Shown: positions 1-19,736 of the stretch, in pieces
Layout of the letters: each line of letters opens with the position of its first letter
Numbering within the stretch: position 1 is the first letter of the stretch
Source of the DNA: Nostoc sp. PCC 7120 = FACHB-418
Lineage (GTDB): Bacteria > Cyanobacteriota > Cyanobacteriia > Cyanobacteriales > Nostocaceae
DNA length: 32,000 nt
Direction of reading: 5' to 3'
NCBI RefSeq assembly: GCF_000009705.1
Contig: NC_003276.1
Coordinates: 210,001-242,000, forward strand
The notes under the pieces: generated by a model
The model's input: only the letters and a program-made list of their open reading frames with translations
What the model was told of the DNA's origin: nothing
Databases searched by the model: none
Translations under genes and position numbers: made by a program

Positions 1-273
1 GTTGGTGCGGAGATTGGGGCAATTGTCGAACGTGCCGCCGTCTTTACTTTCTGTCAAATGTTCAGTGAAGATGTTTTGTCAGTTAGTGAACTTCCACCGT
101 TAGAAATTACGCTCTCAGCATTGTTAACTGCAAGGCAGAACATGAATCCTCTGGCCATCCGTGAGGCTGACCGGGTTGAAAGTATGCGGAATAAAGCGGC
201 TTTGCAAGGTCAAGCATCTAGTCCGGTCGATTCATCTATATATAGTCTCGGCAATATCGATATTTTTGGATAA
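1..273 (+). CDS. 3' end of an ORF entering from upstream; hypothetical protein
   Basis: Frame 1 is open from nt 1 (VGAEIGAIVERAAVFTFCQ precedes the listed Met at 58) to the stop at 271-273. No motif recognised. Confidence 0.4.
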   Translation, partial: VGAEIGAIVERAAVFTFCQMFSEDVLSVSELPPLEITLSALLTARQNMNPLAIREADRVESMRNKAALQGQASSPVDSSIYSLGNIDIFG

Positions 274-836: not shown

Positions 837-859
837 ATTGTCAAAGTATTGCTATCTAT

Positions 860-2780: not shown

Positions 2781-3002
2781 TTTTTAAGTTGCTACTACCT
2801 TTCTTAAACTACAGTCTTTTATCATAAAATTACAAAAAATTCAATACCCCCTTTTTACATATACTGAGAGCATTTACAAAATATTTATACTATCAAAATG
2901 ATTTGAATGCAGTTTTTGCAAATATAACCCCTGCGGTTACAGGATTTACTTTATATATACGTAGAAATAATTAGTGATAAATATTATAGCAGTACCACAG
3001 TT

Positions 3003-3018
3003 CTGTTTTTTTCAGTAC
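3003..3018 (+). promoter_or_regulatory. 16-bp motif CTGTTTTTTTCAGTAC, candidate operator upstream of the T4SS operon
   Basis: Identical 16-mer at 25333-25348. TTGACTT (-35-like) follows at 3040-3046. The motif lies 80 bp upstream of the ATG at 3098. CAGTACC half-sites recur at 2990-2996 and 3013-3019, with the related GAGTACC at 3021-3027. Confidence 0.4.
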
Positions 3019-3097
3019 CAGAGTACCTCGATTTTGAGGTTGACTTATTAAAGAATGTGCGTATTCCTCATTAAATCGTTCAGGAGAACGAAACCAG

Positions 3098-3703
3098 ATG
3101 CGTACTTCTTACGGATATTCAGATTTTACTCAAGCAGCAACCCTTTCATATTCACCTAAAAATGAGATAGGTAAAAAAGGCACACTTTCACTCATGGGTG
3201 TAACGGGTGTGCTGATGATTGCAGAGATGTCCGTCCACAATATATTGATGGGTGGATTTATGATTGGGGCAGCTATCGTCATTGCCTTGCCGAAACAGTC
3301 TCAAGCGTTATTCACTAATTTTGACAAACTACAAAGAAAGTATGGAGTTAATCTCTATGCTGTTTTGTTTGCATTGTTAGCAGTGGTTTGTGTACTAGAT
3401 TTTGCATCTGCTCCAGCTAATGCTCAGTTTTTTAATGGCGCTCAAACTTGGATGAAAACCGCTTTTAGCCGTGCAGGAGGTGGAGGTACTGGAAACCAAA
3501 TAGAAACAGTTATTAATTTATTTTTCAATGTATTAAGAGGGTTATTCCTTTTATATGTTGGTATTAGTTTAGTTCGCATCATTCAAGCAGCCCGAAATGA
3601 TGAAGATTGGCAGTCGCTAGCAAGAACTCCATTAATTATAGTTTTGGCTGTTTTTTGTGGCGATTTAATTACTACATTAATTGTAGGAACAACTACACCT
3701 TAG
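3098..3703 (+). CDS. Polytopic membrane protein; C-terminal half resembles a VirB2/TrbC-type pilin precursor
   Basis: AGGAG at 3081-3085 precedes the ATG. An internal signal-peptide-like stretch LYAVLFALLAVVCVLDFASAPANA-QF is followed by about 92 aa with two hydrophobic helices flanking a charged loop (AARNDEDWQSLAR). It is the first gene of the T4SS operon. Confidence 0.5.
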   Translation: MRTSYGYSDFTQAATLSYSPKNEIGKKGTLSLMGVTGVLMIAEMSVHNILMGGFMIGAAIVIALPKQSQALFTNFDKLQRKYGVNLYAVLFALLAVVCVLDFASAPANAQFFNGAQTWMKTAFSRAGGGGTGNQIETVINLFFNVLRGLFLLYVGISLVRIIQAARNDEDWQSLARTPLIIVLAVFCGDLITTLIVGTTTP

Positions 3704-3719
3704 TACAAGAAAAGGGGAG

Positions 3720-4190
3720 GATTTTTATGTATATTTTCTCCCCATCAGCCCGGATTAAGTCTCTATTTAATAACTTTTTTGAGTCAAGTCGCTGCTCTAC
3801 GTTCGCGGAAGCGTGTCGAAGACAGACGCTACGTGTTAAGCGTCGGCGCAGCCTCTCCGACAGGAGAAGCTATGCCGCAGGCTTTACGCTCCAATTCAAA
3901 ATTATTTCCATTCTTCCTAACAGAATTTTGCATTTTGCGTTCAAAAAAGGTCAACTCGCTTCGCTCCAATTCAAAATTAAAAATTCAAAATTCAAAATTA
4001 AAGACAATTACTGGGGGCTTGTACCCACCACTAATTGTAGCCTGCGGCAACCCGTTCGCGCAGCGTCTCCGACAGGAGAAGGGTAGACCACCAAATCGGA
4101 GATTTTGGTGGGGGCTTGTACCCAAAATTATTAAATTCAAAAAAATTCTTATTCTTCATTTTGAATTTTGCATTTTGCATTTTGAATTAA
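3720..4190. repeat. Nest of dispersed direct and inverted repeats (Nostoc-type intergenic repeat cluster)
   Basis: Direct repeats: GCGCAGC(C/G)TCTCCGACAGGAGAAG at 3846-3869 and 4058-4081; TGGGGGCTTGTACCCA at 4012-4027 and 4109-4124; CGCTCCAATTCAAAATTA at 3887-3904 and 3962-3979; GAATTTTGCATTTTGC at 3923-3938 and 4163-4178. Hairpin CCACCAAA/TTTGGTGG at 4088-4111. The AATTCAAAATT runs (3968-4002) are inverted relative to the ATTTTGAATTTTG runs (4158-4190). Confidence 0.8.
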
Positions 4191-4193
4191 AAA

Positions 4194-4502
4194 ATGGTCA
4201 AGATGTCACAACAACGCTCTTTTCGCACGGTTAACAGAATTTTAGGAGAAAGACCAAGATTAGGGCCATTTCCCGCCGACCAAATATTTCCTTGGACATT
4301 GATAGCAGTAGGAAATGTCTTCCTGTTCAATTATTTACTTAAAGCAAGTTGGTTAGCTACTGGATTGGCGATCGCATGGGGATGGGCCTCTTGGTGGACG
4401 ATATCTACAAATAAAGATTTTTTCGGCAAATTTGTTAGCACTCCACGAATTAGCCGGGGATATATGAGACACAAACCAATTCGCAATTCTGAAGAACCTT
4501 AA
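4194..4502 (+). CDS. Small two-TM protein, VirB3-like by size, topology and position
   Basis: 102 aa with two hydrophobic helices (FPWTLIAVGNVFLFNYLL and WLATGLAIAWGWASWWTI), located immediately upstream of the VirB4-like ATPase. Confidence 0.5.
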   Translation: MVKMSQQRSFRTVNRILGERPRLGPFPADQIFPWTLIAVGNVFLFNYLLKASWLATGLAIAWGWASWWTISTNKDFFGKFVSTPRISRGYMRHKPIRNSEEP

Positions 4503-4523
4503 ATTTCAGTTATTAATAAAGTT

Positions 4524-7343
4524 ATGCCAAAGTCTTCTAAAAATTTGAAAGATAAACTAGGGAAAGGTAAGTTAGAAAATGAGCAGATTAACGTTGTTAA
4601 AATGCTCACTCCTTTTGAAGATATTATCCATTTGGCAGGGATATGTGACATAAGCTTAGGAGGGAGACAAGGGATAGGTGCATTAATTCTGAAAAAAGAT
4701 GAGAGTATTCAAATTAAATTCTGCTTTGATTGCTTGGGGGTGCATCCTAATTTACCAACAGAGCAAATGTTAGCTATTTTTGAGGGGATAGAAGCGGGAC
4801 TAAAAGAAATCCCAGAAGGTGAAAGCTTAACAATACATTTAGGTTCGTTTACCTCAGACTACAGCAGACAACAAGAATTATCGCTCTTAGAATCCAATTG
4901 CTCTATTGACCAGTTAAAACTATTAAGTCGTAGTGAAAGATTAAGAACTAAAGAACTAACGCAAAGTGGGATTAGAAAGAACAAGTTTCTGAGACTATGG
5001 TGTACTTATACTGTGGTGGCTGACGATGAACGGAAGAGTGATTTTATAGAATCTATTATTAGAAAATTAGAGAAGGGATGGTTTAGCTTTACAGGCGAAA
5101 TTCATGCCATAAATAATACGCGGATTGAGAATATTCTCCAAAATTCATTCAATGATGGATTTTTGCAGTGGTCAGCTATCTTGGGGAATAAGATGAAATT
5201 GGGAATTAGAGTTCTCAGTGTTGATGAAATGTGGTCAGTTATTTGGCAGCAATTTAATCACTCTACTCCTCCAACAATTCCTAACCCTTTAAAAATCGAC
5301 TCTGTAGAGGGACTAGTAGAAACTCAAACCAGTGATTTCCACATCAGGCATCAGATGTTGGAGAACGAGGAGTCTGTACCATTTTTCGACAGGAAATGGG
5401 TAAAAATCCAAAATAAATATATTGGGGCGCTCAATTTCAGTCAAAAACCGGGGGGCTGGTATGACGAACAAGCACAACTACGCTATTTGTGGGAGTTAAT
5501 TTCTAGGGATAGCATATATGATACAGAAATCGTTTGTCAGTTAACAAAGGCAAACCAAACTATCTCAAAAACCAACCTACAACGCATTACTAAACAGTCA
5601 ATCACTAGCACTTCTTTATCTACAGAGAAAGGAAATATTGATGTTAAATCAGGCATGAATATTGAGGAAGCGGTGGAGGCACAGAAGACGATATATAAAG
5701 GTAGTGTTGTTGTACATAGTGCAGTGGCTTTTCTCGTTCACCGCAAGACGACTAAAGAATTAGATGAGGCTTGCCGATATCTAGCTAGTTATTTTCTACG
5801 TCCGGCGGTAGTTGATAGGGAAGTTGAGTGTGCCTGGAAGATATGGTTGCAGTGTTGTCCCTTCGTGTGGGAGCCACTGTTAACTAAGCCATTCAACCGC
5901 CGACTACCTTACTTTAGTTCGGAAGCGCCGGGGTTAATGCCATTGATTAGAACTGCCACAGGCGATCGCACTGGATTTGAGTTAATAGCAGAAGAAGGCG
6001 GCACACCTGTACACCTGGACTTATACCAAAACCACAAGAATCTGGCTGTGTTTGGTGCAACTCGTTCAGGTAAATCTGTGTTAGTCGCGGGGATATTAAC
6101 CCCAGCCCTAGCACAAGATATTCCGGTAGTCGCACTAGACTATCCTAAACCAGACGGTACTTCTACTTTCACCGACTACACCAATCTACTGGGTGAAGAT
6201 GGAGCATACTTTGACATCTCCAAAGAGTCAAACAATCTTTTTGAGCTTCCTGATTTGCGCTCTTTAGATGCAGAACTAAGAAATGAGCGATTGAACGATT
6301 TCAAAGAATTTCTTAAATCAGTGCTGATGACAATGGTGATCGGCACAAGCATGATTGGTGTTAGCCCCTCAATGATCACTAATATTGAATCAATCATTGC
6401 GTTAACATTAAAAACGTTTTTTAATGATGACGAAATTAAATTGCGGTACAAACTAGCGATAATTCAGGGGTTTGGGAGTAAGGAATGGAGCGAGACTCCC
6501 ACTCTTAAAGACTTTTATAATTTTTGTTCTCCCGCATTTATACAATTAGATTCTATTGCTAGTCATAGTCAAGAAATTTCCGAAGCCTTGCAGCAAATCA
6601 GGCTGAGAATAAATTATTGGTTAAATACCAGGGTTGGGCAATCAATATCACGCCCATCCAGCTTTAGAACTAATGCCAAATTATTGGTTTTTGCTTTACG
6701 TAATTTATCAAGTGAGGCTGATGCAGCGATACTTGCTCTTAGTGCTTATGCGGCAGCTTTACGTCGCGCACTCTCATCAAAAGCTTCGATATTCTTTCTT
6801 GATGAAGCGCCAATTTTATTTCAATTTGACGCGATCGCTGACCTAATTGGGCGATTGTGTGCCAACGGTGCTAAATCTGGTATTCGCGTTATACTTTCGG
6901 CTCAAGAAGCTGAGACTATATACCAAACTAAAGCGGCACAGAAGATATTTAGCAATATCACTACTCGCTTAGTAGGCAGGATTCAATCATCGGCTGTTGA
7001 TCCGTTTATTGTTCGCTTTAAATATCCCACCGAAATTATTAGGGTCAACAGCACGGAAGCTTTTTATCCGAAAAAGGAGGGAATTTATTCTAATTGGCTC
7101 TTAGATGATAATGGCAAACTCACATTCTGTAGATACTATCCGGCTTACTGTTTATTAGCTTCCGTTGCTAATAATCCCAATGAGCAGGAATTACGCAGTT
7201 TGTTTCTCAAAGAATACAAAGATAATCCTCTACTTGGTTTAGTCAAGTTTTCGGAGGATTATATCAAGATGATTAGAGGGGAAGAATTATCCCAATTAGC
7301 TAAAACTTTGCTCTCAAATTTACATTCAAAGCAGGTAGCGTAA
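4524..7343 (+). CDS. virB4: VirB4/TrbE/TraC-family T4SS ATPase
   Basis: 939 aa. Walker A GATRSGKS (nt 6054-6077) and Walker B FFLDEAP (nt 6792-6812). Size and operon context are typical of VirB4. Confidence 0.88.
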   Translation: MPKSSKNLKDKLGKGKLENEQINVVKMLTPFEDIIHLAGICDISLGGRQGIGALILKKDESIQIKFCFDCLGVHPNLPTEQMLAIFEGIEAGLKEIPEGESLTIHLGSFTSDYSRQQELSLLESNCSIDQLKLLSRSERLRTKELTQSGIRKNKFLRLWCTYTVVADDERKSDFIESIIRKLEKGWFSFTGEIHAINNTRIENILQNSFNDGFLQWSAILGNKMKLGIRVLSVDEMWSVIWQQFNHSTPPTIPNPLKIDSVEGLVETQTSDFHIRHQMLENEESVPFFDRKWVKIQNKYIGALNFSQKPGGWYDEQAQLRYLWELISRDSIYDTEIVCQLTKANQTISKTNLQRITKQSITSTSLSTEKGNIDVKSGMNIEEAVEAQKTIYKGSVVVHSAVAFLVHRKTTKELDEACRYLASYFLRPAVVDREVECAWKIWLQCCPFVWEPLLTKPFNRRLPYFSSEAPGLMPLIRTATGDRTGFELIAEEGGTPVHLDLYQNHKNLAVFGATRSGKSVLVAGILTPALAQDIPVVALDYPKPDGTSTFTDYTNLLGEDGAYFDISKESNNLFELPDLRSLDAELRNERLNDFKEFLKSVLMTMVIGTSMIGVSPSMITNIESIIALTLKTFFNDDEIKLRYKLAIIQGFGSKEWSETPTLKDFYNFCSPAFIQLDSIASHSQEISEALQQIRLRINYWLNTRVGQSISRPSSFRTNAKLLVFALRNLSSEADAAILALSAYAAALRRALSSKASIFFLDEAPILFQFDAIADLIGRLCANGAKSGIRVILSAQEAETIYQTKAAQKIFSNITTRLVGRIQSSAVDPFIVRFKYPTEIIRVNSTEAFYPKKEGIYSNWLLDDNGKLTFCRYYPAYCLLASVANNPNEQELRSLFLKEYKDNPLLGLVKFSEDYIKMIRGEELSQLAKTLLSNLHSKQVA

Positions 7344-7346
7344 GTC

Positions 7347-8063
7347 ATGAAACCAATCTTGAAGAAACTAACTATTAGTGCAATAGCTTCTGCTACTTTT
7401 GGCAGTTTATTTATTGCTGCACCTAGTTATGGCATCAGCATTAATGATTTTTTTAGTTCCATTGTCTCAGATTTCCAAACTGAGATTTCCAAAATCCAAA
7501 ATGATGCTAAGGAGAAAATTAATATCAGTTGGGCAGGGATTAAAACAGATGCTATCGCCGCAATTGATAGTTCTATCGGACAATTGGGTGCGCCTGATCC
7601 GATTGCTTCGGCTGATAAGTTAAAGGATTCGCTTAAGGATGATTATTCTTATCCTGTCGCTCAAGAGAATGCACAAGAACTAGAGCGTCAACTAACTCTG
7701 GCTTCTGTCAGTAGTGTTGTTAGCAAAGACGGACAACAACAAACTCAAGAAAAAATTGATACTACTGCACAAATCGCCCAGCAAGCGAAAAGTATTGCTG
7801 ATGAGGCTCAGAATATGGATGCCTCTCAAAATGTACTTAAAGCGATCGCTGCTCAGAATGCTTTAGTTGTCTCAATGCTGGCACAGCAACGTACTGATTC
7901 TTTATCTGCCCGACAGGACAGTGCTTACTCTAACCTGATGCTGACACAAGTAGCAGAACACCTTGATTCTCAACGGAAAAAGGAGAACTCCGAAGAAGAT
8001 GGCAGGTTATCTTTAGTGCATGAAGTCATACTTAATGCACGTTTAGATCCTACTTTTAAGTAA
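7347..8063 (+). CDS. Secreted helical protein (VirB5-like position; function uncertain)
   Basis: Signal peptide MKPILKKLTISAIASATFGSLFIAAPSYG. The remainder is Ala/Gln/Ser-rich and looks helical. It is 238 aa and lies between the VirB4-like and VirB6-like genes. Confidence 0.55.
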   Translation: MKPILKKLTISAIASATFGSLFIAAPSYGISINDFFSSIVSDFQTEISKIQNDAKEKINISWAGIKTDAIAAIDSSIGQLGAPDPIASADKLKDSLKDDYSYPVAQENAQELERQLTLASVSSVVSKDGQQQTQEKIDTTAQIAQQAKSIADEAQNMDASQNVLKAIAAQNALVVSMLAQQRTDSLSARQDSAYSNLMLTQVAEHLDSQRKKENSEEDGRLSLVHEVILNARLDPTFK

Positions 8064-8072
8064 GAGTTATGG

Positions 8073-8111
8073 GTGCGCGAATGTAAAAAGTTGTTATTAT
8101 CATTCGCGCAC
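8073..8111 (+). terminator. Perfect 11-bp stem-loop immediately after the stop of the 7347-8063 gene (attenuator or mRNA-stabilising hairpin)
   Basis: GTGCGCGAATG (8073-8083) pairs with CATTCGCGCAC (8101-8111) across a 17-nt loop. There is no clear U-tract, so it is not a canonical intrinsic terminator. Confidence 0.4.
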
Positions 8112-8127
8112 TATATCTACTGCAATT

Positions 8128-9279
8128 TTGTATTTTCAAAAACAGGTATTTAGGAAAGTTTTGAGTATGTACTATTTATTAGCAAAAACAACTGGCGGAC
8201 AACTAGCAACTGAAGCAAACAATAATGCGATTGCTGTTGCCCAAGGATTTAACGAATTGTGGGAGCGAACTATAAGCGGTGAAGTTTACAGAAATATGTG
8301 TACTATTGGCGCTTTATTCGCTGTAGCTACGTTAACATTCTTCATGATTGAATGGACAAAGAAAATGGTGGCGGGGGACGAGCAACGGGCATATACAGAT
8401 TTTATTTGGCCTTTAATAGTTGTAGTTCTACTAAGTAATAATGGAGATGTTCTAGGAAAATCAACTTTAGGAATTAGAAATTATATAAATAATGTCAACA
8501 CATTACTTCTTGGGACTACTGCTGCTGGGCTTGACTTGAGAGAAGCATACGAAAAAGCAATTGGTACTGAAGCAGCGCGTAGTGCAATTGGTGTAACTAT
8601 TAACAGGTGTAAAAATTCTTCATTGAGTCAACAAGAGCAGATAGAATGTCTGAATAAAGCAAAGCAAGACTTAAAAGAGAAATATCCAGATAAATTCGGT
8701 GCTGACGGGCTATTTTCTTGGTTTACTGATGCGATTGATGCTACCGTTGACGCTTTCAAAGATTTCAATGAAGATGTTAAAAACAAGAAAGCCAATGGAC
8801 TAGATTTAATATTCTCTCCCATCAATGGGTTTATCGGCTCTGCCATAACAGACATTATTACTATAATTTTAGTCGGAATGAATGGAGCCTATCAATGGGG
8901 AATTGAATTAACAATGTTAGTAACAGCACTTCTTGGGCCAGTGGCGGTTGGTGGTTCTTTATTACCTTACGGAGCTAAATCTATCTACACTTGGCTAATT
9001 GGCTATTTCACTGTAGGCTTCGGAAAACTTTGTTTTAATATCATTGTAGGATTTGCTGGACAATTAGTCGCTGATTCAAAAACTTATCAACCGATGTTCT
9101 TCCTTTTTACTATCGGTATAATTGCCCCATTTTTAAGTGCAGGTTTAGCGGCTGGTGGGGGAATTGCTGTCCTTACTCAAATTAATAAAGCTGCTGAAAC
9201 TTACAGTAGCATTGCTATTGAAGTTACTAAAGGTATTGTGACTAAAGGTGGTAGTTTAGTCGGGAAAATGGCTAAGTGA
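8128..9279 (+). CDS. Polytopic inner-membrane protein, VirB6/TrbL-like
   Basis: 383 aa with at least 5 hydrophobic segments and a large central soluble loop, in the operon position after the VirB5-like gene. The start is uncertain: TTG at 8128 or ATG at 8167. Confidence 0.55.
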   Translation: MYFQKQVFRKVLSMYYLLAKTTGGQLATEANNNAIAVAQGFNELWERTISGEVYRNMCTIGALFAVATLTFFMIEWTKKMVAGDEQRAYTDFIWPLIVVVLLSNNGDVLGKSTLGIRNYINNVNTLLLGTTAAGLDLREAYEKAIGTEAARSAIGVTINRCKNSSLSQQEQIECLNKAKQDLKEKYPDKFGADGLFSWFTDAIDATVDAFKDFNEDVKNKKANGLDLIFSPINGFIGSAITDIITIILVGMNGAYQWGIELTMLVTALLGPVAVGGSLLPYGAKSIYTWLIGYFTVGFGKLCFNIIVGFAGQLVADSKTYQPMFFLFTIGIIAPFLSAGLAAGGGIAVLTQINKAAETYSSIAIEVTKGIVTKGGSLVGKMAK

Positions 9280-9390
9280 GCCTAGAAAATTAACTGCTTT
9301 ACAAATACGAACTGCATAGCTTGCTTCCTTAAAGGGGTACTGCTAATTGTGAATTAATGTTACCCCTACTCTCTACAACTTGTTTCTTAT

Positions 9391-10185
9391 ATGCTGAATC
9401 TTAAAAAAGCCTCTTCTAGCAAGAAAGAGCCGTTGCAACTGCTTAGTTATAACAAATATGTCACAACTAGAGTAGGCATAATTTCTTTAGCTGGATTCTC
9501 AATGGCGGCGTTATCTCTAATTTTACAGTTTCTCAATTATGGTGCGATTTCTTCCTTAAATAAAAAACAAATAGCTCTGGTACAATTATCGTCAGGAGAT
9601 ACAATTACCGCCAGAGCAGTAGACCCAAAGCAACGGTCTGATGAAGTCATCAAAAAGTTTGTCTCAGACACATTCATCAAGATGTTTAACTGGGATGGTT
9701 TAATACAAACCTTCAACGAGAAGGGCGAACCCATCACAAAGCAGGATACTGGGATAGAAGTAGGCAGAATTGATAATAAATCTAATAGTCGAGTGGCTGA
9801 AAAAGCTTACAATGCTGCTTTTGCTTTGAGTGAAAACGGAGGATTCAGAGCCGCATTTCTGAAGAAGTTAGCATCAATCACTCCTAATGGATCATTTAAT
9901 GGAGAATCACAAGTATCTTTAATCCCTAGATTTATTTCTAACCCACGCCAAATTAGAGAAGGCAAGTGGGAGATAGATTTTATTGGGACGTTAGTAACTT
10001 TTGACCGGGAAGATAACTCTGGTCGAGGAATTGCTTTTAATAAAACCATCACAGTTTCATCAATTTCTAATCCAGAATATATCCCAGCTAATACTAGTGA
10101 ACTGTCTAAGAAAATTTATTTGGCAAGGAAAGCCGGATTAGAAATTACCGAAATTGTCGATTTAGATTTGGGTAAAAGAAAATGA
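9391..10185 (+). CDS. Bitopic membrane protein, DotI/IcmL- or VirB8-like
   Basis: One N-terminal TM segment (IISLAGFSMAALSLILQFL) followed by a periplasmic domain of about 200 aa. EVIKKFVSDTFIKMFNWDG ... GGFRAAFLKKL ... REGKWEIDFIGTLVTF resembles DotI/IcmL-type patterns from memory. Confidence 0.5.
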   Translation: MLNLKKASSSKKEPLQLLSYNKYVTTRVGIISLAGFSMAALSLILQFLNYGAISSLNKKQIALVQLSSGDTITARAVDPKQRSDEVIKKFVSDTFIKMFNWDGLIQTFNEKGEPITKQDTGIEVGRIDNKSNSRVAEKAYNAAFALSENGGFRAAFLKKLASITPNGSFNGESQVSLIPRFISNPRQIREGKWEIDFIGTLVTFDREDNSGRGIAFNKTITVSSISNPEYIPANTSELSKKIYLARKAGLEITEIVDLDLGKRK

Positions 10186-11723
10186 GTATAGACAATAATA
10201 AAAATGGTTCAGGAGCGACTTTAGAGGACTTGCTTCATATCGATGATGCTAGTAGTAAAACTAATGGAAATAAAGCGCCAGAGCTAGAAAGTTTGTTAGT
10301 GCCTACTAAGCATACATTTGTCACTTCTCCTTGGTCAAGACTGGCAATAATCGCCGTCCCTTTTGGAGTGGGATTTTTAGCTATATTTTTGATGCTCAAT
10401 GGTATTTTTAATCCCGCACCAGCGCCAAAAATTGCCGAAAAAGAGTCAGAAACAACAACTACTACTGAACAAGCCCAACAAACTGAAGAAAGCGATGGTG
10501 ATGCCCGTGCAAAACTCGCTCTGTCTGAACAAGCCAACGAGTTAGGCAGGGTCAACGACAAAAATAAACAACCAGTACAAGTGTCCAAAACCGAAAAGGT
10601 TGTACCATCCACGCCGCCGTCGCCACGTCCTGCACCTCAACCTGTTCAGACCTCACAACCACGCCTTGTACCTCGAACTGCACCACAACCGATTAGAACC
10701 TACACACCACAAACACGGACTAGTTTTTCTCCTAGACCTTCTATCTCTGCATCTGCTCGGACAGTAACGCCCATAGATCCCATCGAACAACTTAACAAAC
10801 TTCGCACCATCGGGTCTTACGGCAAAATCGCTTATGGCGAAACTAGCACTAATGACCATTCTTCATTAGACCCAGCACAAAATTTACCTAATCAACCAGA
10901 TGAGCCAACTGATTTCAATAATGTCAGCAACAATCCTGTCCTTGAAACCACACCGTCCCCTTCACCGGACTCTATTGAAAAGATCCGCCCCCGGTGGCAA
11001 GCCCAACCTCAAGCTAAGTCGGATAAATATTTAGACCAGGAAAGCCAAATCATTCAGGGAAAACAAACTCGCTACCTCACCGTTGGTACTTTTGCTAGTG
11101 GTGTTCTTGTTACACCCTTAGTTCAAGCCACAGTTAATAGCTCAGTCCAGCAACAAACACCAACCCCTGATACTAGGTCGGTCGTTAGATTAACTCAAGA
11201 TTTACGCGATAACTATGGGCAGGTGGCAATACAGACGGGAACTTTATTAGCGGTAGAACTAGTTTCGGTTGACGGCGGTAGTGTAGCGATCGCTCATGTT
11301 CGGGCGATTATCAAAGATAATACCGAGTACCCTATTTCGACTGGTGCGATATCTGTGACTGGAGAAGGTGGCAGACCTTTAATCGCCAATAAACTTCAAG
11401 ACAGGGGTGGCGAGATTGCCCGTAATGACTTGTTCGGTGGTGCTGTATCTGCATTGGGAAAAGTCGGAGAGGTGATTAATCAACCGGATAATGAAGAAGA
11501 AATTGAGGATGAATTTACGGGCAGGATTCGACGGCGCAGCAGTGGCAATCGTCGCAATATTACTGGTGCATTACTCGAAGGGTTTTTTGGTCAAGTTAGC
11601 CAGAACGTCAGCCAACGCAATCAACGTGCTACCCAAGAAATTAATTCTCGCCCAAATGCTTGGTATATCGGGGCGGGTACTAAAGTGACCATTACAGTTA
11701 ATCGCTCATTGGAGTTGCCATGA
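10182..11723 (+). CDS. VirB10/TrbI-like T4SS protein
   Basis: N-terminal TM segment (LAIIAVPFGVGFLAIFLML), a long Pro-rich linker (PSTPPSPRPAPQPVQTSQPRLVPRTAPQP) and a C-terminal domain ending GAGTKVTITVNRSLELP. ATGA overlap with the upstream gene. Confidence 0.65.
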   Translation: MSIDNNKNGSGATLEDLLHIDDASSKTNGNKAPELESLLVPTKHTFVTSPWSRLAIIAVPFGVGFLAIFLMLNGIFNPAPAPKIAEKESETTTTTEQAQQTEESDGDARAKLALSEQANELGRVNDKNKQPVQVSKTEKVVPSTPPSPRPAPQPVQTSQPRLVPRTAPQPIRTYTPQTRTSFSPRPSISASARTVTPIDPIEQLNKLRTIGSYGKIAYGETSTNDHSSLDPAQNLPNQPDEPTDFNNVSNNPVLETTPSPSPDSIEKIRPRWQAQPQAKSDKYLDQESQIIQGKQTRYLTVGTFASGVLVTPLVQATVNSSVQQQTPTPDTRSVVRLTQDLRDNYGQVAIQTGTLLAVELVSVDGGSVAIAHVRAIIKDNTEYPISTGAISVTGEGGRPLIANKLQDRGGEIARNDLFGGAVSALGKVGEVINQPDNEEEIEDEFTGRIRRRSSGNRRNITGALLEGFFGQVSQNVSQRNQRATQEINSRPNAWYIGAGTKVTITVNRSLELP

Positions 11724-12460
11724 AAAAGTTTTTGATTGGTATACCGTTGGCGATCGCCGTTGCAGTTGTGCCACTATCCACAATTGCCGCCCCTGTAGTC
11801 CGCACTATCAGGCAATCGCAAGCTAGTGGAACTACTGCCAAACTGCAAACTATCAATGTTTGGAATGGTCACGGGGTAGCAATTTCCTTCTATGAAACTG
11901 GCGAAACTATCAAAAAAGTCTGGTTGGACGACCCCTCACAAATTCTCATTGACACAGATGGTTGCTTAGAAGGACTGGATCAGAATTGTCCTAATCCCGG
12001 TGCTGGACTAATTCATCTGCGACGGATCAAAAGGGTGAATATTCCAGGGCTTCCGCAAACATCAACAACTTTACTAACAGTAGTTACACAATCATCCTCT
12101 GGTGAGCGCAAGACTTACAGTTTCAGATTGGCAACCAGTAATGGCACTCCTAAATATAGCCAGGTAGTGATTACGAGTGCTGCTCCGACTGTGGCACAAA
12201 AACCTCAATTGTCTTCACTAATCGAAACGCAAAAAATTATCAACCAAATCAGGCGAGGGATGGCGATCGCTATTAAAAATCGGCAGATGAATTACCAAGA
12301 TGAATTACATAAGCGCTTGCAAAAGTTCATTGGTCATTTACAACAAGGTGACGATATTTCTACTGCTGCAAAGGCGGCTTCTGTTTCTCAAGAATTAGTT
12401 AATAAATTAATCTCTTTGAGTAATAGTTCTCTTCATTTAACACAAGGTAATACTTTATGA
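11720..12460 (+). CDS. Secreted VirB9/TrbG-like protein
   Basis: Signal peptide MKKFLIGIPLAIAVAVVPLSTIAAP. GVAISFYETGETIKKVWLDDPSQILID and TTLLTVVTQSSSGERKTYSFRL resemble VirB9 motifs (..I..v.lGD...w ; TNL.vvT....r.Y.f.L). ATGA overlaps at both ends. Confidence 0.55.
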   Translation: MKKFLIGIPLAIAVAVVPLSTIAAPVVRTIRQSQASGTTAKLQTINVWNGHGVAISFYETGETIKKVWLDDPSQILIDTDGCLEGLDQNCPNPGAGLIHLRRIKRVNIPGLPQTSTTLLTVVTQSSSGERKTYSFRLATSNGTPKYSQVVITSAAPTVAQKPQLSSLIETQKIINQIRRGMAIAIKNRQMNYQDELHKRLQKFIGHLQQGDDISTAAKAASVSQELVNKLISLSNSSLHLTQGNTL

Positions 12461-13653
12461 AATCAAAATTTAATAATAACCTAGACTCACGTTATTTAAT
12501 CCTTTTTGGTTTACTTGGTACTTTATTTATTCATAGCTTTATTAAGTATGGGATACTTAATCAAGTAGTTGGGTCTATCATGCCGAGAGCATCTGCACAA
12601 GTCCCGGTTATTAACTCACCCAATGGATTTGTACCTGATTGGTCGCGCCTGAAATTTAGCGACATGATTATTTCTGAAGATGGTAGTGTGACCTATCCTG
12701 GTTCAAGAGGAACAGAAACTAGAAGCTGGACGGCAGGACAAAGCATTGCAGAATTTATGGAATTGGGCGATTTTGAAACCCCTCAATTAGCCATAGAAAA
12801 TCTGAACCTCTCAACTATTGCTTCAGTACAAGGAGTCAATTTAAATAGGTTAAGATTAGATGATTTTCAGTTAACAAGATGGCAAACTTTGCCAAACTTA
12901 GCCACAGCCGTTCCTGGGTTGGGTAATAGAAGTGTTGCTAGTGTGCCACCCATCCGCGATTTTGCTCGGAGATTTGGCATTAATAGCGGCACAATTGCTA
13001 ATGCTAGTCGCAATTCCAGATTGCGTAATGTTCAACTTGGGCGAGGTATTAACTTAAGAAATTACGCACTCACATCTATACCTAATATTCAGAACGCATC
13101 AATTAATCGATTTGCTAATTGGCAGGACTCGAAAATTATCGGTGTGCCTGGATTATCCACTCTTACCTGGGATAATTTACCTGGACTGCGATCGCTTGAC
13201 TTGTCATTTGTTGCAAAAGTGGATCTGCCATTGCGAGATATCGAAGCTAACCGTACTCGCTCTATCTCTGGTAGTTATCAAGAAGGTTTTAATGTTCCCT
13301 GTTTACAGAATAATTGCGCTCACATGGAGATGTCGGGGCTAGGCAAGACTACTGGTACACAGTGGATATCTGGGAAGTATCAAAAAGTTAATGGTGGATT
13401 TGGACTTTTAAAAGCTCTCAATGGTGGCAAAGAGCCTACTGGTCGAAACCCTTTTGGCTCCAGTTTTAAGCAAGTTGTTTGGAATATTTATGAAGGCAGT
13501 GGAGAAGTAGAAACTGCTATGTTCTTCCGTATTTGCAAAACCATTCCCTTCATTGGTCGCACTTGCAGTCCTTACTTTATTGGCCCTGTGCCTTTTATTG
13601 AGTACCGGGAGAAAGACCCTATCGTTCTCGGTAAACCAAATTCTCTACCTTAA
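12457..13653 (+). CDS. Secreted or membrane-anchored T4SS-associated protein of unknown function
   Basis: N-terminal hydrophobic segment LILFGLLGTLFIHSF, translationally coupled to its neighbours. Contains repeated L..VPGL(G/S) helix-hairpin-helix-like motifs and a Cys-containing C-terminal region. Confidence 0.55.
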   Translation: MKSKFNNNLDSRYLILFGLLGTLFIHSFIKYGILNQVVGSIMPRASAQVPVINSPNGFVPDWSRLKFSDMIISEDGSVTYPGSRGTETRSWTAGQSIAEFMELGDFETPQLAIENLNLSTIASVQGVNLNRLRLDDFQLTRWQTLPNLATAVPGLGNRSVASVPPIRDFARRFGINSGTIANASRNSRLRNVQLGRGINLRNYALTSIPNIQNASINRFANWQDSKIIGVPGLSTLTWDNLPGLRSLDLSFVAKVDLPLRDIEANRTRSISGSYQEGFNVPCLQNNCAHMEMSGLGKTTGTQWISGKYQKVNGGFGLLKALNGGKEPTGRNPFGSSFKQVVWNIYEGSGEVETAMFFRICKTIPFIGRTCSPYFIGPVPFIEYREKDPIVLGKPNSLP

Positions 13654-13655
13654 AT

Positions 13656-15425
13656 ATGAGCCAGTCTTTTAAAACAAATAGTGCTAAAAATCAGCAATTT
13701 AGTTTTGAGCAATTGCAAAATCCTGATAATGCAATTGGCAAGTACACTCACCACTTATTTACCCCCAATGGTTTAACAGTTCTATCCTTGCTCGGCGCTT
13801 ATATTCTCATGAGGGTATTTTTTGGCGACTCTAACAAGAAGAAGATTGCTACTTCTTATTGGGGTGGGGCCAAGGAAACGACGGCGGCTAAGAAAAAGGC
13901 GAAGAAACAAATCGCCAATCCTCAATGTGATAGTGCGGCACTTTACATTGGTAAGCATCAGGATAAAGGCGATGGCACTACTTTCTATATCCCTGATGTG
14001 CAACGGGGTACGGCTGTCATCGGCGCTCCAGGTAGTGGTAAAACATTCTCTGCCATCAACCCGATGATTTACTCGGCTATTGATCAGGGGTTTCCATGTA
14101 TAGTTTATGACTTTAAGTATCCGTCACAAGCGAGAGTTGCTGCTTATGCCAAGTACAAGGGCTATGATGTGCATATCTTTGCACCCGGATTTCCTGAATC
14201 TGAAGTTTGCAATCCTTTAGATTTCCTCAAAGACAGTAGTGATGCTGAAACTGCCCGACAAATTTCAACTGTGATCAATAAGAATTTTCGACTTTTGGGC
14301 AATTCAACTGAAGATGGGTTCTTTGGCCCTTCAGGGGATCAGCTGACTCAAGCAATACTGATGTTAGCTAAAGAGTTCGGTCAATTTGCAGATGTTATGA
14401 CTTGCGCCGCGATACTTTCAAGCGAACACATGGTCAAACGCCTCATGGCTGCTTCTCTCAATCCTTGGGTAAAAATTGCCTTTGGACAACTGTTCAGTTC
14501 TGCTGCATCTGAAAAGACTGTTGCCGGGATTGTCGCTACTGCCAGTATTATGTTTACCCGATTCATGGCGAAAAACACATTAGGCTGCTTTATCGGCAAG
14601 ACAACTTTACCTCTAGAAATTAAAGGTAAGCAAATGATTATCTTTGGGTTGGATAGAGAACGTCGGGATGCTGTAGGGCCTCTCATGACTTCAATCTTAC
14701 ACATGACCATCGCCCGTAACATTGCCAAAAAACGAAAAGACCCACTCATCGTTGCACTGGACGAATTACCCTCAATTTATTTACCTGACTTATATCGGTG
14801 GCTCAACGAATCCCGTTCTGAGGGCTTCTGTGGTATTATCGGCTTCCAAAATATGGGTCAGCTTGAGAAGAATTATGGTAAAGAAGTTGCCAAGGCTATC
14901 CTTGGTGCTTGCAGTTCTAAATTCATTTTTAATCCTGGTGAAAATGAATCAGCGCAATTATTCTCTAGCTTTTTGGGTGATGAAGAAATTAAGTATAAAC
15001 AGAAAAGCCGTTCTAGTGGTAGTAAAAATAATAGCACCTCTATTAGTGACCAAGAAAAAACTAGAAGGCTTTTTGAATCGGCGCAATTTCTCAAACTTAT
15101 TGCTGGTAAATGTGTTTTCATTAATCCGGCATACGCTAATAAAAATGAGGGTTCTGTTCCACTGCTAAAGACTATTAAGATATCTGTGCCTCTCAAAAAT
15201 ATTGATAAATATAATCAACTTAAATGGGTGAGAATCGTTAGTTTAGCAGCTAGGAAGAGTACGCAGAAATTTCCTTCTCAGCAAGATTTAGCTTTACGGA
15301 TGAATCTTGTTGAATCTCGCTTCCCCATTCCCGAAAACCCTCAAGCTATTTCTCCTAATCCTGCTCTGACAGCAAAAGATGTTCATGGCATGGTCAACAC
15401 AGTTCATCCTGATAGTGGGTTGTAA
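13656..15425 (+). CDS. virD4: Type IV coupling protein (VirD4/TraG family)
   Basis: N-terminal TM segment, Walker A GAPGSGKT (nt 14022-14045), Walker B-like IVALDELPS, and GFQNMGQLEKNYGKE, which is typical of the TraG/VirD4 Q..QL...YG motif. Confidence 0.88.
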   Translation: MSQSFKTNSAKNQQFSFEQLQNPDNAIGKYTHHLFTPNGLTVLSLLGAYILMRVFFGDSNKKKIATSYWGGAKETTAAKKKAKKQIANPQCDSAALYIGKHQDKGDGTTFYIPDVQRGTAVIGAPGSGKTFSAINPMIYSAIDQGFPCIVYDFKYPSQARVAAYAKYKGYDVHIFAPGFPESEVCNPLDFLKDSSDAETARQISTVINKNFRLLGNSTEDGFFGPSGDQLTQAILMLAKEFGQFADVMTCAAILSSEHMVKRLMAASLNPWVKIAFGQLFSSAASEKTVAGIVATASIMFTRFMAKNTLGCFIGKTTLPLEIKGKQMIIFGLDRERRDAVGPLMTSILHMTIARNIAKKRKDPLIVALDELPSIYLPDLYRWLNESRSEGFCGIIGFQNMGQLEKNYGKEVAKAILGACSSKFIFNPGENESAQLFSSFLGDEEIKYKQKSRSSGSKNNSTSISDQEKTRRLFESAQFLKLIAGKCVFINPAYANKNEGSVPLLKTIKISVPLKNIDKYNQLKWVRIVSLAARKSTQKFPSQQDLALRMNLVESRFPIPENPQAISPNPALTAKDVHGMVNTVHPDSGL

Positions 15426-15430
15426 TAATT

Positions 15431-15922
15431 ATGAAAATGACTATTGAAGAATTAAAGATTGATAATTTTGATGTGATTGAAATATTATCCCAAAACCATG
15501 TTTTAGCAAATGGGAGCTTTATTGATATTAATCTGCCTCCTTTGAAAATTATTCAAGAATTTCATACTTTATCTGAAGCTCGACCAAAAATTAAAAATTT
15601 GGGCATCTATACTCTCATCAGTCTAAAAAATGTTTATATTCACCTGAATCAAGAATCTTGCTGGAAAATTGTTAGTCAATATATTTATGGTATTGGTTGG
15701 CATGATTTACAATATATTTGCTTTTTAGATATTCAAAATAGCAATATCAATATACATATTATTTTTAATCGTGTTACACCAGAAGGTAAGCTCATCGACA
15801 TTAAATGCGTCGGGGCTAACTGGCAGCAATATGAGATCCTGCGTCAATCTTGTTCTCTTGTCATCGATAACCCTGTTCATAACAAATATTTGCAAAGACG
15901 ATTTTGTAACTGTTGTCCTTAA
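15431..15922 (+). CDS. Small relaxase-fold (MobA/VirD2-like) protein with degenerate catalytic motifs
   Basis: IYTLISL ... WHDLQYICFLDIQNSNINIHIIFNRVTPEGK (nt 15743-15790 for NINIH..GK) parallels relaxase motifs II-III (h.i.Sf ... HtDtd..H.HivinRv.p.tGk). Only one of the three His is retained, there is no Tyr in the first 59 aa, and the protein is only 163 aa. Confidence 0.45.
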   Translation: MKMTIEELKIDNFDVIEILSQNHVLANGSFIDINLPPLKIIQEFHTLSEARPKIKNLGIYTLISLKNVYIHLNQESCWKIVSQYIYGIGWHDLQYICFLDIQNSNINIHIIFNRVTPEGKLIDIKCVGANWQQYEILRQSCSLVIDNPVHNKYLQRRFCNCCP

Positions 15923-15924
15923 AT

Positions 15925-15991
15925 CAGTTATCAGTTATCAGTGAACAGTGACCAGTTACGAGTTCTGCTCACTGGTCACTGTTCACTGTTA
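15925..15991. repeat. STRR-like heptamer array forming a perfect 18-bp hairpin
   Basis: CAGTTAT CAGTTAT CAGTGAA CAGTGAC CAGTTAC (15925-15959). The inverted units ACTGGTC ACTGTTC ACTGTTA lie at 15971-15991. The stem is 15939-15956 paired with 15971-15988, with a 14-nt loop. Confidence 0.85.
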
Positions 15992-16045
15992 AATCTACAA
16001 TTGCTTGACCCTTCAACCTTTTACCATGCCTAAACCTTAATAAAT

Positions 16046-19000
16046 ATGTTTGATGAAAGACATTTGCAACTAACTTCTGCTTACGCTTATAGTAGTAAGT
16101 ATTTTATCCGTACTGTCATTTATCCTTTAGCCAAATATATTGATAAATATCTTCAGCAAAAAGCTGAAGATTCTATCAATAAAAAGTTATATTGGGAGAC
16201 TGGTAAACAAACTTATGCTATGAGTCAAGATGGCAATGGTGGCTGGAAATGGGAAAAGTATGATCCAACAGCTAACAAGTTTGTATCTCCACCTATGGAC
16301 GAACAGGGACATACCGCTTCAACATTTGCGGAAGCTGTATCTCACGACCTAAATAAAACTGCTTCATCCTCCACTGTGATAGATAACAATACAACTGATT
16401 CTATTACTCAACCGATAAAAGCTCAAACTGAAGAAATCAATTCTCTTGCCAAATCTTCAGGTCTAAAAATTCAAACTGACAATCAAACCTTTGTTACCTA
16501 TCTCAAAACTAATGGCAAAATTGGCTTTTCACTAATTGATGAGCAAACTAACAAGATAGTTGCCGACCAAGAGTTTATTACCCAACTGCAAATAGATGTT
16601 AATAAATATTTATCCGAATGTTTTCAAACATTAGCAATTAATCCAGAAACCTTAAACGAAGATATTTATAATTCTTTAAAAGATTGTTTAACTAGCTTTT
16701 TATCACCCCAGACACCAACTATTGCCAAAAAAGACAATCAAATTGAAAATAGCGAGGTGAACCAATTAAAAAAAGACATTACTCAAGATATTCCCCAGTC
16801 CCCCGAACATATAGATCCACCGCATTGGCAAGAACTAGTAGTCGGTAGTGCGATCGCTCCTGGCATTGCCTCCATGAATTTTGAATCTTTGCACTTTAAT
16901 CAGGCAAGAGGAGTACATGAAGCGTGGGATTTATTGATGACCAGCGACAAAATACCACGTACAAATACGGGTAGAGTCTCTGGAGGAATATTAAAAGCAT
17001 ATTCCTATTTAGATAATACAGATGGCTGGTGGTGTAATGCTGGCATAGATCCCAGACATTTTCAAAATTTAACCCCTGGTGAAACTGCCAACACTAAAGA
17101 ATGGGGGTGTTATAAACCAGATAAGCCAAGACCGAAAACCGAGAAAAAAGATGGGTTAAGTCTAGTGGTTCCGGGTAAATTCACCAAATATGAACATCCA
17201 CTAGGCACTGAAAAAAGTATTTTTTTGTTAGATGTCCCAGACAAGATTGCCCAAAATATTTACTCAAAGGCTGGAGTAAACCCCACAGATAGCGAGCGCA
17301 CAAGTGGATTTTGGTATTGCGTATGGAAACATAATATTCCTGTCACAATTACTGAGGGTGCAAAGAAAGCGGCTAGTCTGTTAAGCCAAGGTCATGCTGC
17401 CATTGGGTTAGCGGGAATTAACGGCGGCTACTATAAAACTAAGAAACTGGAAAATCCCATTGACAATGAAATTAAACCCAATGTTACTGAATCCGATGCT
17501 GTAATTGAATTACTGGAAATTGAGTCCGACGAAGTTGAGGTGGTTGATGAAAATCAAGCAGACAACGCTCAACCTCAAGGTCATCCTACTCACTTTTTGC
17601 ATCCTGAGTTAGCAGTTTTTGCCACAAAGGGGCGAGACTTCAAAATCTGCTTTGACTTTGACACTAAACCTGAAACCAAAAGAAATGTTGATGCTGCCAC
17701 CTTACGTACTGGACAATTACTAGAGGCGACTGGTGGCAAGGTGAGTGTCATTTCTCTACCAGGGCCAGATAAAGGTGTAGATGATTTTATTGTCGAGAGA
17801 GGGCGTGAAGCTTTTGACCAATTGCTTGCCCAATCCTTACCCTTAGAACAATGGAATGATAAGTGCCATCTAGAATTACGCTCAACTATCAAGCTCAAAG
17901 ATGGCACAACCAAGACCGTAGGGGATAAAAATCAGACTGTGGCAATCTCACAGGATAATGTCGCCCTCCAAACACCAATTAACCAATCTCCGCAAGAAAA
18001 TTTAATTGCTCAAATACTTTCGGAGCCTGTTGATCTACCAGCACAACAAAATAAATCTCCTGATGAAAGTCCCAAAATACCTGCATCTGAATTAAATATT
18101 TCGCCATGTAATTTTCAAATTGAAACTTCTTCACCGTCTGCCGAATCTAGTCAATTACAACATCAATCTACCCAGAAAAATACTCATCCTTCATCACTAG
18201 CTCAATCAAAACAACAGCAATCTAACAACAATGCTGCCCCTCACTCTCAACAACAGCAATCTCCACCATCTAATACTACAAATATGCACTCCTCTTCAAC
18301 CAATTCCACAACCCAAAACCAACAAATTCCTCAGCAACAAGAAACTGATGATAAGCGAAGTTGGTTTCCTTGGAAGAGAAAACCAATTATGGAAACTCCT
18401 CTTCCAGAAATTCCTCATTGGGCTAAAACACAGGACGTTACTCTTTATAAACAAAACTTCCAACGACGAAAACTCCACCATCAAGAGAATCAAGCGATCG
18501 CAACTGTAGCTGTGGCGCTCGTCAAGAAATACGGTGTCAAAAACAACGAATCGGGCAAAGAGCTAACTTATGTTGCTGATGCTTTCGTTATTCAAAAAAA
18601 AGGGGAAGATTACACTATTTCCCGTCGCCACGATGGTAAGGAGTTGATGAGCTTCATGGCGGATCGTTGGGGTGGAGTGAACAGAGTCAATCTAGGTCAA
18701 GACTTTAATACCAAAAATTACCCCATTAATATCCTACCTATTGAAAGACAAGAATTTTTATTAGTTGCTGACCACCTCAAAGGGGGTAAAGAATTACCAT
18801 CACTTGATGATGACCCACGCAAGCTTGCTTCTGTCTTGAGTTCGGTTTCACCTAGCGGCACACACAATATTTTAGAAAATTTTAAGCAATCCCAACTGTT
18901 GCAAATCATGATGGGAACTATCCGCAATTTTGAGAAAGACGACTTAACTTTAGCTAATTACCGCATTCTTTTTCGGCAAGGCACAGGCGGAAAATCTACA

Positions 19001-19729: not shown

Positions 19730-19736
19730 TTAACCG

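Follow-up and report, generated by a model that had tools for sequence, protein, structure and literature searches.

A probable MPF_C-class conjugation module on a Nostoc megaplasmid, with a putative relative of cell-wall hydrolases among its subunits

The mating-pair-formation (MPF) class MPF_C of conjugative type IV secretion systems (T4SSs) has been described with homologues of VirB3, VirB6, VirB8, VirB9 and VirB10 and with three orphan profiles, and a VirB2 homologue was not found in it (PMC4027160). According to the literature, relaxases accompany its loci systematically (PMC4027160, PMC8600333), and the genes of its model are numbered after plasmid alpha of Nostoc PCC 7120, with alr7199 for the relaxase, alr7206 for VirB4 and alr7213 for VirD4 (PMC8600333). 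A 2025 review still terms the class hypothetical (PMC12282955). Here we report on 32,000 nt of Nostoc sp. PCC 7120 = FACHB-418 (NC_003276.1, 210,001–242,000 of the forward strand; this whole stretch is called the window), in which an initial annotation, made from the sequence alone, had noticed an MPF_C-like conjugative T4SS operon at 3098–15922. We hold with high confidence that this region encodes the mating-pair-formation and coupling parts of a conjugative T4SS of the MPF_C class, carried by a Nostoc/Anabaena megaplasmid. The remark of the initial annotation that MPF_C was defined by computation alone is still true as of 2025, and its statement that no experimental model is known was essentially right, the exception being marker transfer between megaplasmids of Anabaena, reported in 1994.

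The MPF_C reading is borne out by the taxonomy of VirB4 and by a gene order that matches the published model. Relatives of the VirB4 gene (O3; we number the genes of the locus O1 to O13 in their order) were found by tblastn in 129 plasmid records, and all listed matches and named genera are cyanobacterial, as are all 79 genome loci (79/79) around VirB4 relatives. The gene order was compared with the help of L002, a Nostoc parmelioides contig with 99% identity (its coordinates are those of the window plus 5858). Counting genes in L002 from the relaxase, VirB4 is at +7 and the type IV coupling protein (T4CP) at +14; these are the offsets of alr7199, alr7206 and alr7213, so that O1 to O9 correspond to alr7204 to alr7212. 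In addition, proteins identical to O4 and O9 are present on a 408,621-bp contig. The region is very likely the alr7204–alr7213 locus of plasmid alpha or a near-identical copy of it. MPF_C has eight class-specific accessory profiles, which we take to be alr7204, alr7205 and alr7207–alr7212; O1, O2 and O4–O9 fill the positions of these eight families beside VirB4, and are kept in 60–86 of the 87 loci compared.

The system is therefore already known as a member of a catalogued, computationally defined class, and is probably its very model locus. With that locus (Guglielmini et al. 2014, PMC4027160) it shares the phylum, the compact co-directional operon and the order of genes (pilin position, VirB3-like, VirB4, orphan, VirB6-like, VirB8-like, VirB10-like, VirB9-like, orphan and T4CP), and there is probably no difference between the two. 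The MPF_T systems (Agrobacterium pTi virB, R388 trw and pKM101 tra) have homologous VirB4, VirB10, VirB9 N-terminal domain and T4CP in a similar gene order, and probable equivalents of VirB2, VirB3, VirB6 and VirB8; in contrast to them, our locus lacks VirB11, a VirB1-type SLT and VirB7, has the VirB10 gene before the VirB9 gene, and has O9 as an extra subunit. O3 scores 29.7 bits with TIGR00929 (VirB4_CagE), for which the cut-off is 643, and so falls outside MPF_T. Family searches found no transglycosylase domain in the window and lipobox searches no VirB7-like lipoprotein in the operon, in agreement with the initial annotation, which had reported neither of these nor a VirB11-type ATPase. 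Given these three absences and the sub-threshold VirB4, the label 'MPF_T' that PLSDB/MOB-suite gives to related plasmids is a nearest-class call and not a membership.

Eleven real genes (O1–O11), all on the + strand, lie within 3098–15922. The gaps between consecutive genes from O1 to O11 are 490, 21, 3, 64, 111, -4, -4, -4, 2 and 5 nt, and the three ATGA start/stop overlaps previously noted are present at 10182, 11720 and 12457. The initial annotation had counted twelve open reading frames (ORFs) with gaps of 0–110 nt. Its compact same-strand packing stands, but the twelfth ORF (3607/3728–4086) is spurious: it lies inside a 413-nt insertion that is missing from L002, and is thus not a gene. 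The co-directional block extends past 15922 to 20537 with two more genes, O12 (after a gap of 123 nt) and O13 (after 7 nt). Scans for promoters and terminators did no better than on shuffled sequences, and no RNA family was found with Rfam.

For the subunits we compared each MPF_C profile, using hhalign, with ten templates (VirB1–6 and VirB8–11) built from eight diverse MPF_T plasmids (R388, IncN, Ti, Xylella, Campylobacter, Acinetobacter, IncI2 and Pseudomonas). For O1, O3 and O5–O8 the expected VirB partner scored best among the ten; no match to any of the ten was found for O2, O4 and O9. The assignments of VirB4, T4CP, VirB10 and VirB9 are well supported by these profile and motif comparisons. 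O3 (4524–7343, 939 a.a.) is a VirB4-family ATPase of a cyanobacterial clade, and matches VirB4 at 97.3% over 713 columns; its Walker motifs are GATRSGKS (A, residue 511) and FFLDEAP (B, residue 757). It has weak NCBIfam matches to T-, F- and G-type VirB4/TraC models (including TraC-F and VirB4_CagE), far under their cut-offs, as expected for the most divergent VirB4 clade. O10 (13656–15425, 589 a.a.), a VirD4/TraG-type T4CP, matches three Pfam families above threshold (TrwB_AAD_bind, E=6.7e-27; TraG-D_C, E=2e-26; T4SS-DNA_transf, E=2.6e-21), and has an N-terminal transmembrane (TM) segment at 39–57, Walker A GAPGSGKT (123), LDELPS (368) and GFQNMGQL (396). All five ATPase motifs on which the VirB4 and coupling-protein calls had been based were thus recovered, and both calls stand.

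O7 (10182–11723, 513 a.a.) is the VirB10/TrbI protein: an N-terminal TM segment and a Pro/Ser/Thr/Gln-rich linker are followed by a C-terminal TrbI domain (residues 298–512 match Pfam TrbI with E=3.7e-14 and 53.5 bits, the cut-off being 35), and hhalign gives 79% over 173 columns with VirB10. O8 (11720–12460, 246 a.a.) is a VirB9-like protein with a signal peptide. It has no Pfam match; hhalign places it with VirB9 (93.1%, P=3e-7 over 128 columns), and it is the N-terminal beta domain alone that aligns. Its C-terminal half, which is helical and lineage-specific, does not align with VirB9 and replaces the C-terminal domain through which the MPF_T VirB9 pairs with VirB7/VirB10 in the outer-membrane cap. 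The VirB10- and VirB9-like calls made earlier from topology, short motifs and gene order are borne out, for VirB9 in the N-terminal domain. O6, O7, O9 and O10 each have a single TM segment.

Four further subunits, which had been called pilin, VirB3, VirB6 and VirB8, received support that is specific but in each case weak. O1 (3098–3703, 201 a.a.), at the alr7204 position, is a candidate VirB2-like pilin precursor: a long leader of ∼109 a.a. is followed by a cleavage-type site (ASAPANA↓Q) and then by ∼92 a.a. of putative mature protein with two hydrophobic helices, and its hydrophobic segments (44–67, 81–109, 138–163 and 173–200) give a topology that fits a VirB2 pilin, in which two such helices with a charged loop between them come after a cleaved leader. 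Its alignment with VirB2 (35%, P=4e-4) covers the leader cleavage site and the first helix. O5 (8128–9279, 383 a.a., TTG start) appears to be a polytopic VirB6/TrbL-like inner-membrane protein with four to five hydrophobic segments. It aligns with VirB6 over 67 columns (24%, P=8e-4), and its orthologue on pNPUN03 matches Pfam TrbL with E=1.7e-5 and 25.2 bits, just under the cut-off of 25.9. O6 (9391–10185, 264 a.a.), a putative bitopic VirB8-like protein, has its TM segment near the N-terminus (26–49); the alignment with VirB8 (11%, P=0.003) covers this segment and the beginning of the periplasmic domain. Profile searches with the O6 and O8 alignments against PDB sequences returned chance matches only.

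O2 (4194–4502, 102 a.a.; 99 a.a. from the ATG at 4203) is a small membrane protein without a direct profile match to VirB3 in hhalign. The profile of the stand-alone O2, however, matches the N-termini of longer VirB4 proteins in two other MPF_C loci, of Oscillatoria (E=2e-15) and of pNPUN03 of N. punctiforme (E=3e-10), and this fusion of an O2-type N-terminus to VirB4 follows the VirB3–VirB4 fusion pattern, which suggests that O2 is VirB3-like. Taken together, these subunit results reproduce the set of MPF_C homologues described before (PMC4027160).

O4 (7347–8063, 238 a.a.) is a secreted all-helical protein at the VirB5 position, with a signal peptide and a conserved G(L/A)PDP motif. The VirB5 label given to it agrees with its position, signal peptide, size and helicity, and found no support in any test: O4 has no Pfam or NCBIfam match, hhalign aligns it with VirB5 (a helical bundle with a globular appendage) at 4% over 9 columns, and its AlphaFold2 (AF2) model, built from no more than 25 sequences that share at least 49% identity, is poor (predicted local distance difference test score, pLDDT, 55.6). 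A profile-based search brought up no distant homologues of use for the prediction, and the Foldseek matches of the model are generic helical ones (coiled-coil or BAR). In Allocoleopsis pMIC7113.01 (L081:14737–15945) we observed one protein of 402 a.a. that combines an O4-like N-terminus (signal peptide, GLPDP and Q-rich helices) with an O5/VirB6-like membrane domain. This fusion suggests that O4 and O5 act together.

Conservation was followed in the 87 loci around VirB4 relatives (79 genome loci and eight plasmid loci), in which the genes were found by iterative profile searches. O2 and O3 are present in 85–86 of these loci, O1 and O4–O9 in 60–78 (O1 in 71, O4 in 78), O10 in 56 and O11 in 37, and in 48 loci O12 is found 3' of the T4CP gene. 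The gene order is seen again in about 60–85 of the 87 loci, and the order O1 to O10 is kept from Nostocales to Chroococcidiopsis, Allocoleopsis, Oscillatoria and Acaryochloris; chance cannot account for such clustering. At the DNA level the entire 12.8-kb region is 80–86% identical to 10 large Nostoc/Trichormus plasmids. Compared with plasmid A of Trichormus variabilis, the ratio of nonsynonymous to synonymous substitution rates (dN/dS) is 0–0.39 for all 13 genes (e.g. 0.39 for O1, 0.06 for O3, 0.14 for O9 and 0.20 for O13), at a dS of ∼0.6 for most genes (range 0.08–1.3); such values in every gene indicate purifying selection. These features of conservation, order and selection are observed directly, as are the homologies and the domain fusions.

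O9 (12457–13653, 398 a.a.), at the alr7212 position, is a membrane-anchored periplasmic protein that ends 2 nt before the T4CP gene. It has no Pfam or NCBIfam match, and no hydrolase catalytic domain was found in it. The combination of structure prediction and Foldseek that the initial annotation had suggested yielded for O9 a confident model and no neighbour: the AF2 model (49 homologues) has a pLDDT of 79 and a predicted template modelling score (pTM) of 0.77, and no Foldseek neighbour was found in PDB or BFVD (E<=0.001). In the model a TM helix (9–30) and a small beta hairpin lead into a repeat or solenoid-like part (∼100–250), which a disordered linker joins to a Cys-rich beta domain (289–390). 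Most of the invariant residues (C282, C287, H289, E291, C360 and C370) belong to this beta domain.

The initial annotation could name no counterpart for this protein, but a counterpart exists, namely the N-terminal module of MPF_C cell-wall hydrolases. Among 1.84 billion representative proteins, a search with the family profile gave 593 representatives of the O9 family, and 99 of the best 148 among them are extended at the C-terminus by 100 a.a. or more. In 67 long members we found Peptidase_M23 (24 proteins) and GH19 (nine proteins), and other members combine GH19 with NlpC/P60, CHAP or DUF6950. For example, the O9 orthologue of Acaryochloris is 870 a.a. long and ends in a Peptidase_M23 domain. 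An unnamed domain of ∼150 a.a. (here 'domain Y') follows the O9 module in 58 representatives, and is located between the module and M23 in 20 of the best 148; it has the motifs NCGRALGRYQ…SYRPEVR and DPTTGQPF.GDRLIERVAQ, no Pfam match and no similarity to VirB1/SLT. Toxin-type domains end two of the 67 long members (one Ntox50 and one CdiA_C), and one of these two proteins is fused to a T4CP.

The M23, GH19, NlpC/P60 and CHAP domains of the long relatives point to the O9 family as the membrane-anchored peptidoglycan hydrolase of MPF_C, an analogue of VirB1. The Nostocales O9, including the copy in the window, retains the N-terminal module alone, and family searches found no other hydrolase domain encoded in the window. 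To judge from its relatives, O9 of the window is the hydrolase-less counterpart of the MPF_C VirB1 analogue, a relative of the hydrolase subunit with no recognisable hydrolase domain itself. The module may dock the hydrolase to the channel, engage the murein, or both, and this structural role would persist without the enzyme.

Membrane-anchored, multi-domain hydrolases are known from conjugation in monoderm bacteria: CwlT of ICEBs1, PrgK of pCF10 and TcpG of pCW3. The long O9-family members are like them in having an N-terminal anchor followed by muramidase-type (GH19) and peptidase (M23 or NlpC/P60/CHAP) domains, encoded inside a T4SS operon, but differ in the shared O9 module, which has neither a Pfam family nor a structural neighbour; O9 of the window also differs in lacking a catalytic domain. 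We tentatively propose, as a possibility that we do not yet rate as probable, that the O9 module is an undescribed periplasmic domain, a T4SS-docking or peptidoglycan-engaging platform of the subunit with which MPF_C breaches the cell wall; it would carry enzymes (M23, GH19, NlpC/P60) in most cyanobacterial lineages and be kept without them in Nostocales, where the Cys-rich beta domain might be active itself or recruit a host hydrolase. If so, the O9 platform would be a distinct solution for crossing the unusually thick cyanobacterial murein. What is modestly new here is that the orphan alr7212 family, one of the three MPF_C orphans, is placed as a hydrolase anchor module.

The T4SS operon had been described as complete-looking. 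The MPF_C module is confirmed, but the conjugation operon is not complete within 3098–15922, as the only relaxase-like protein there, O11, is catalytically degenerate and the MOB_V relaxase is, to judge from L002, encoded outside the window. O11 (15431–15922, 163 a.a.) has a degenerate MobA/VirD2-fold domain that matches Pfam Relaxase (PF03432, E=4e-9) in profile positions 23–122 only, with 1–22 unmatched. It shares the central part of the PF03432 MobA/VirD2 relaxases and lacks their catalytic N-terminal Tyr and metal-binding His triad (HxDxxxxHxH): in the family alignment there is no conserved Tyr within the first 58 residues and no His triad, the triad positions reading F-x-D ... N/x-x-H/D-IIFNRV (F, N/Y/E, H/D). 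We reject a role as relaxase because of these missing residues; O11 is not the nickase, and probably acts as an accessory or DNA-binding factor of the relaxosome.

A full relaxase of the MOB_V type (Mob_Pre, PF01076) is found upstream in L002, where positions 2697–6131 encode a Mob_Pre (E=1.8e-36) plus DUF3991 protein of 568 a.a. and then an AAA ATPase of 575 a.a. These are followed by DUF192, Mrr-like and integrase genes as at the 5' end of the window. The L002 Mob_Pre gene is at the equivalent of window positions -3161 to -1455, ∼4.6 kb upstream of O1. The first ORF of the window (58–273) encodes the C-terminal 71 a.a. of the same AAA ATPase, which indicates that the probable relaxase and oriT are just outside the window.

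O12 (16046–19729, 1227 a.a.) is a DUF3854 (Toprim-like) protein without a helicase domain (Pfam DUF3854, E=3.8e-39). It shares 31% identity (E=3e-45) with residues 12–425 of the replication protein (Rep) encoded further downstream, and is a paralogue of the Rep N-terminus and a candidate conjugative primase or DNA-processing protein. O13 (19737–20537, 266 a.a.) is the last co-directional gene, and its sole orthologue among the loci compared is on plasmid A of Trichormus variabilis, in the same position.

We infer a mechanism by homology with the VirB/D4 paradigm; this applies to the assembly of the system, to the roles of O1, O2, O4, O9, O11 and O12, and to actual DNA transfer. The MOB_V relaxase, whose gene in the near-identical contig lies shortly before the start of the window, would nick oriT, and O11 (the degenerate relaxase fold) and O12 (the Toprim-like protein) may aid DNA processing. 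O10 would then pass the relaxase–single-stranded DNA complex to an envelope-spanning channel putatively made of O2 (VirB3-like), O3 (VirB4), O5 (VirB6-like), O6 (VirB8-like), O7 (VirB10) and O8 (VirB9-like). O1 would be the pilin and O4 a secreted helical protein at the VirB5 position, and O9 may serve as the docking or scaffold module of a peptidoglycan hydrolase, without an enzymatic domain in this Nostocales lineage.

The O1–O2 spacer (3704–4193, 490 nt) is taken up by the 413-nt insertion (3790–4202), which is flanked by GTCAAG and consists of short dispersed Nostoc repeats resembling miniature inverted-repeat transposable elements (MITE-like). It contains internal direct and inverted repeats and palindromes such as TCTCCGACAGGAGA and TGGGGGCTTGTACCCA (the latter twice), and pieces of it recur across many Nostoc plasmids, in up to 12 places in one record. 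In L002, where it is missing, the O1–O2 spacing is 85 nt. The insertion ends directly 5' of the ATG at 4203, which is probably the true start of O2, giving 99 a.a. as in its relatives. On plasmid A of Trichormus variabilis a group II intron (ltrA) occupies the same spacer instead. The spacer appears to be an insertion hotspot.

Several points weigh against a working MPF_C conjugation module. Neither the relaxase nor oriT lies in the window, and the sole protein of a relaxase family there is the degenerate O11; searches with Pfam and NCBIfam found in the window no VirB11-type ATPase and no recognisable peptidoglycan hydrolase domain; the links of O2 to VirB3, O6 to VirB8, O5 to VirB6 and O1 to VirB2 are individually weak; neither sequence profiles nor structure support O4 as VirB5; the 413-nt insertion parts O1 from O2–O11, so that co-transcription might be affected; and functional evidence for any MPF_C system consists of the 1994 marker transfer only. 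It is conceivable that the operon is an inactive relic, broken by polarity of the repeat insertion or by loss of the hydrolase domain, as the insertion lies directly upstream of the O2 start, O9 lacks hydrolase domains (C-terminal extensions are found in 67% of the best 148 representatives of its family) and O11 is degenerate. We consider this unlikely, as all 11 genes are intact with a dN/dS of 0–0.39 at a dS of ∼0.6, and the hydrolase-less O9 and the short O11 have the same lengths across many Nostocales plasmids, which makes them lineage features and not recent damage; moreover, VirB1 is dispensable in the VirB model (PMC4027160). Less likely still is a T4SS put to a non-conjugative use, i.e. 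contact-dependent delivery of toxins or effectors, or release or uptake of DNA. The lack of a functional relaxase in the window (with O11 degenerate), the Ntox50 or CdiA_C domains in two of the 67 long O9-family members, and the typing of some VirB4-bearing cyanobacterial plasmids as non-mobilizable would fit such a use, but the locus has a VirD4-type T4CP, a MOB_V relaxase gene that precedes O1 by ∼4.6 kb in the near-identical contig, and the context of a plasmid backbone, and MPF_C is associated with relaxases in the literature (PMC4027160, PMC8600333).

That the module belongs to a chromosomal integrative and conjugative element (ICE) and not to a plasmid is suggested by the tyrosine recombinase directly upstream, but is very improbable: the window encodes both a Rep of the CyRepA1 type and ParA-like partition proteins, all close DNA matches are plasmids, and identical O4 and O9 proteins are encoded on a 408.6-kb contig. 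We give practically no weight to the idea that only the two ATPases are T4SS-like and that the flanking ORFs form an unrelated envelope system (type IV pilus, competence or type II secretion). Most of the small proteins indeed lack Pfam or NCBIfam matches, but VirB10 (Pfam) and VirB9 (93%) are T4SS-specific, and the O1, O5 and O6 profiles are nearest to the expected VirB partners. The initial annotation had named type IV pilus or competence families among the flanking ORFs as the finding that would speak against it; we looked for such families, and no PilB/PilT/GspE, secretin, PilC or prepilin-peptidase family was matched anywhere in the window, which effectively refutes that reading.

As an MPF_C module the window adds no new class; it is a clean, intact and selection-constrained example in a genetically tractable lineage, and its value is in guiding experiments more than in novelty. 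The subunit map parts solid assignments from guesses, and is useful for designing deletions and for structural work on cyanobacterial conjugation. The latter is relevant to the way in which megaplasmids of Nostoc spread natural-product and symbiosis genes horizontally (PMC8600333).

The genes around the operon are largely those of a plasmid backbone. A tyrosine recombinase (1821–2780, + strand; Pfam Phage_integrase, E=2.5e-31) adjoins the operon upstream and is found in the same position in NC_007410 and related plasmids; it probably acts in multimer resolution or integration. At the other end of the window a CyRepA1-type Rep (27692–31354, - strand) combines DUF3854 (Pfam, E=1e-42) with a P-loop helicase, and the NC_007410 orthologue carries the annotation 'plasmid replication protein, CyRepA1 family'. 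The CyRepA1 family has been described (PMC10079941), and its presence indicates that the replicon is a plasmid. O12 (19331–19402) and Rep (27929–27991, - strand) share an in-frame peptide, …GEAGE…AGG(D/E)FTN(I/H)SSPAS…, encoded by a small palindromic element (GAAGCAGGGGA … TCCCCTGCTTC), which looks like a very small mobile repeat inserted in coding sequence.

Genes for a ParA/CbiA-like ATPase (348 a.a.), a P-loop protein (233 a.a.) and a DUF6753 protein (198 a.a.) at 22483–24903 on the - strand are probably the plasmid partition module. Just 3' of the transfer genes, a truncated-looking histidine kinase with HATPase_c only (20765–21526, - strand) and a LuxR/GerE-type response regulator (21826–22482, + strand) are divergently arranged, an arrangement kept in plasmid A of Trichormus variabilis; the two may regulate transfer. 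The only lipobox-bearing ORF in the window (25648–26310, + strand, 220 a.a., MNKVGLFASLTLIGLGLGAC…) is outside the operon, has no Pfam match and is kept in plasmid A of Trichormus variabilis. As a VirB7 it is too large and too distant. Next to it, at 26331–27502 on the - strand, are two paralogous small membrane-anchored proteins (207 and 179 a.a.) that have no family match and are similar in their C-terminal motifs, …G(R/K)(L/I)PEV(D/N)Y…GC…Y. At the 5' end of the window (276–1423), a DUF192 gene and the gene for a protein that combines an N-terminal TM segment with an Mrr-type restriction endonuclease fold are located between the relaxase/ATPase genes and the integrase; the DUF192 gene is found on plasmid A of Trichormus variabilis too, at another place.

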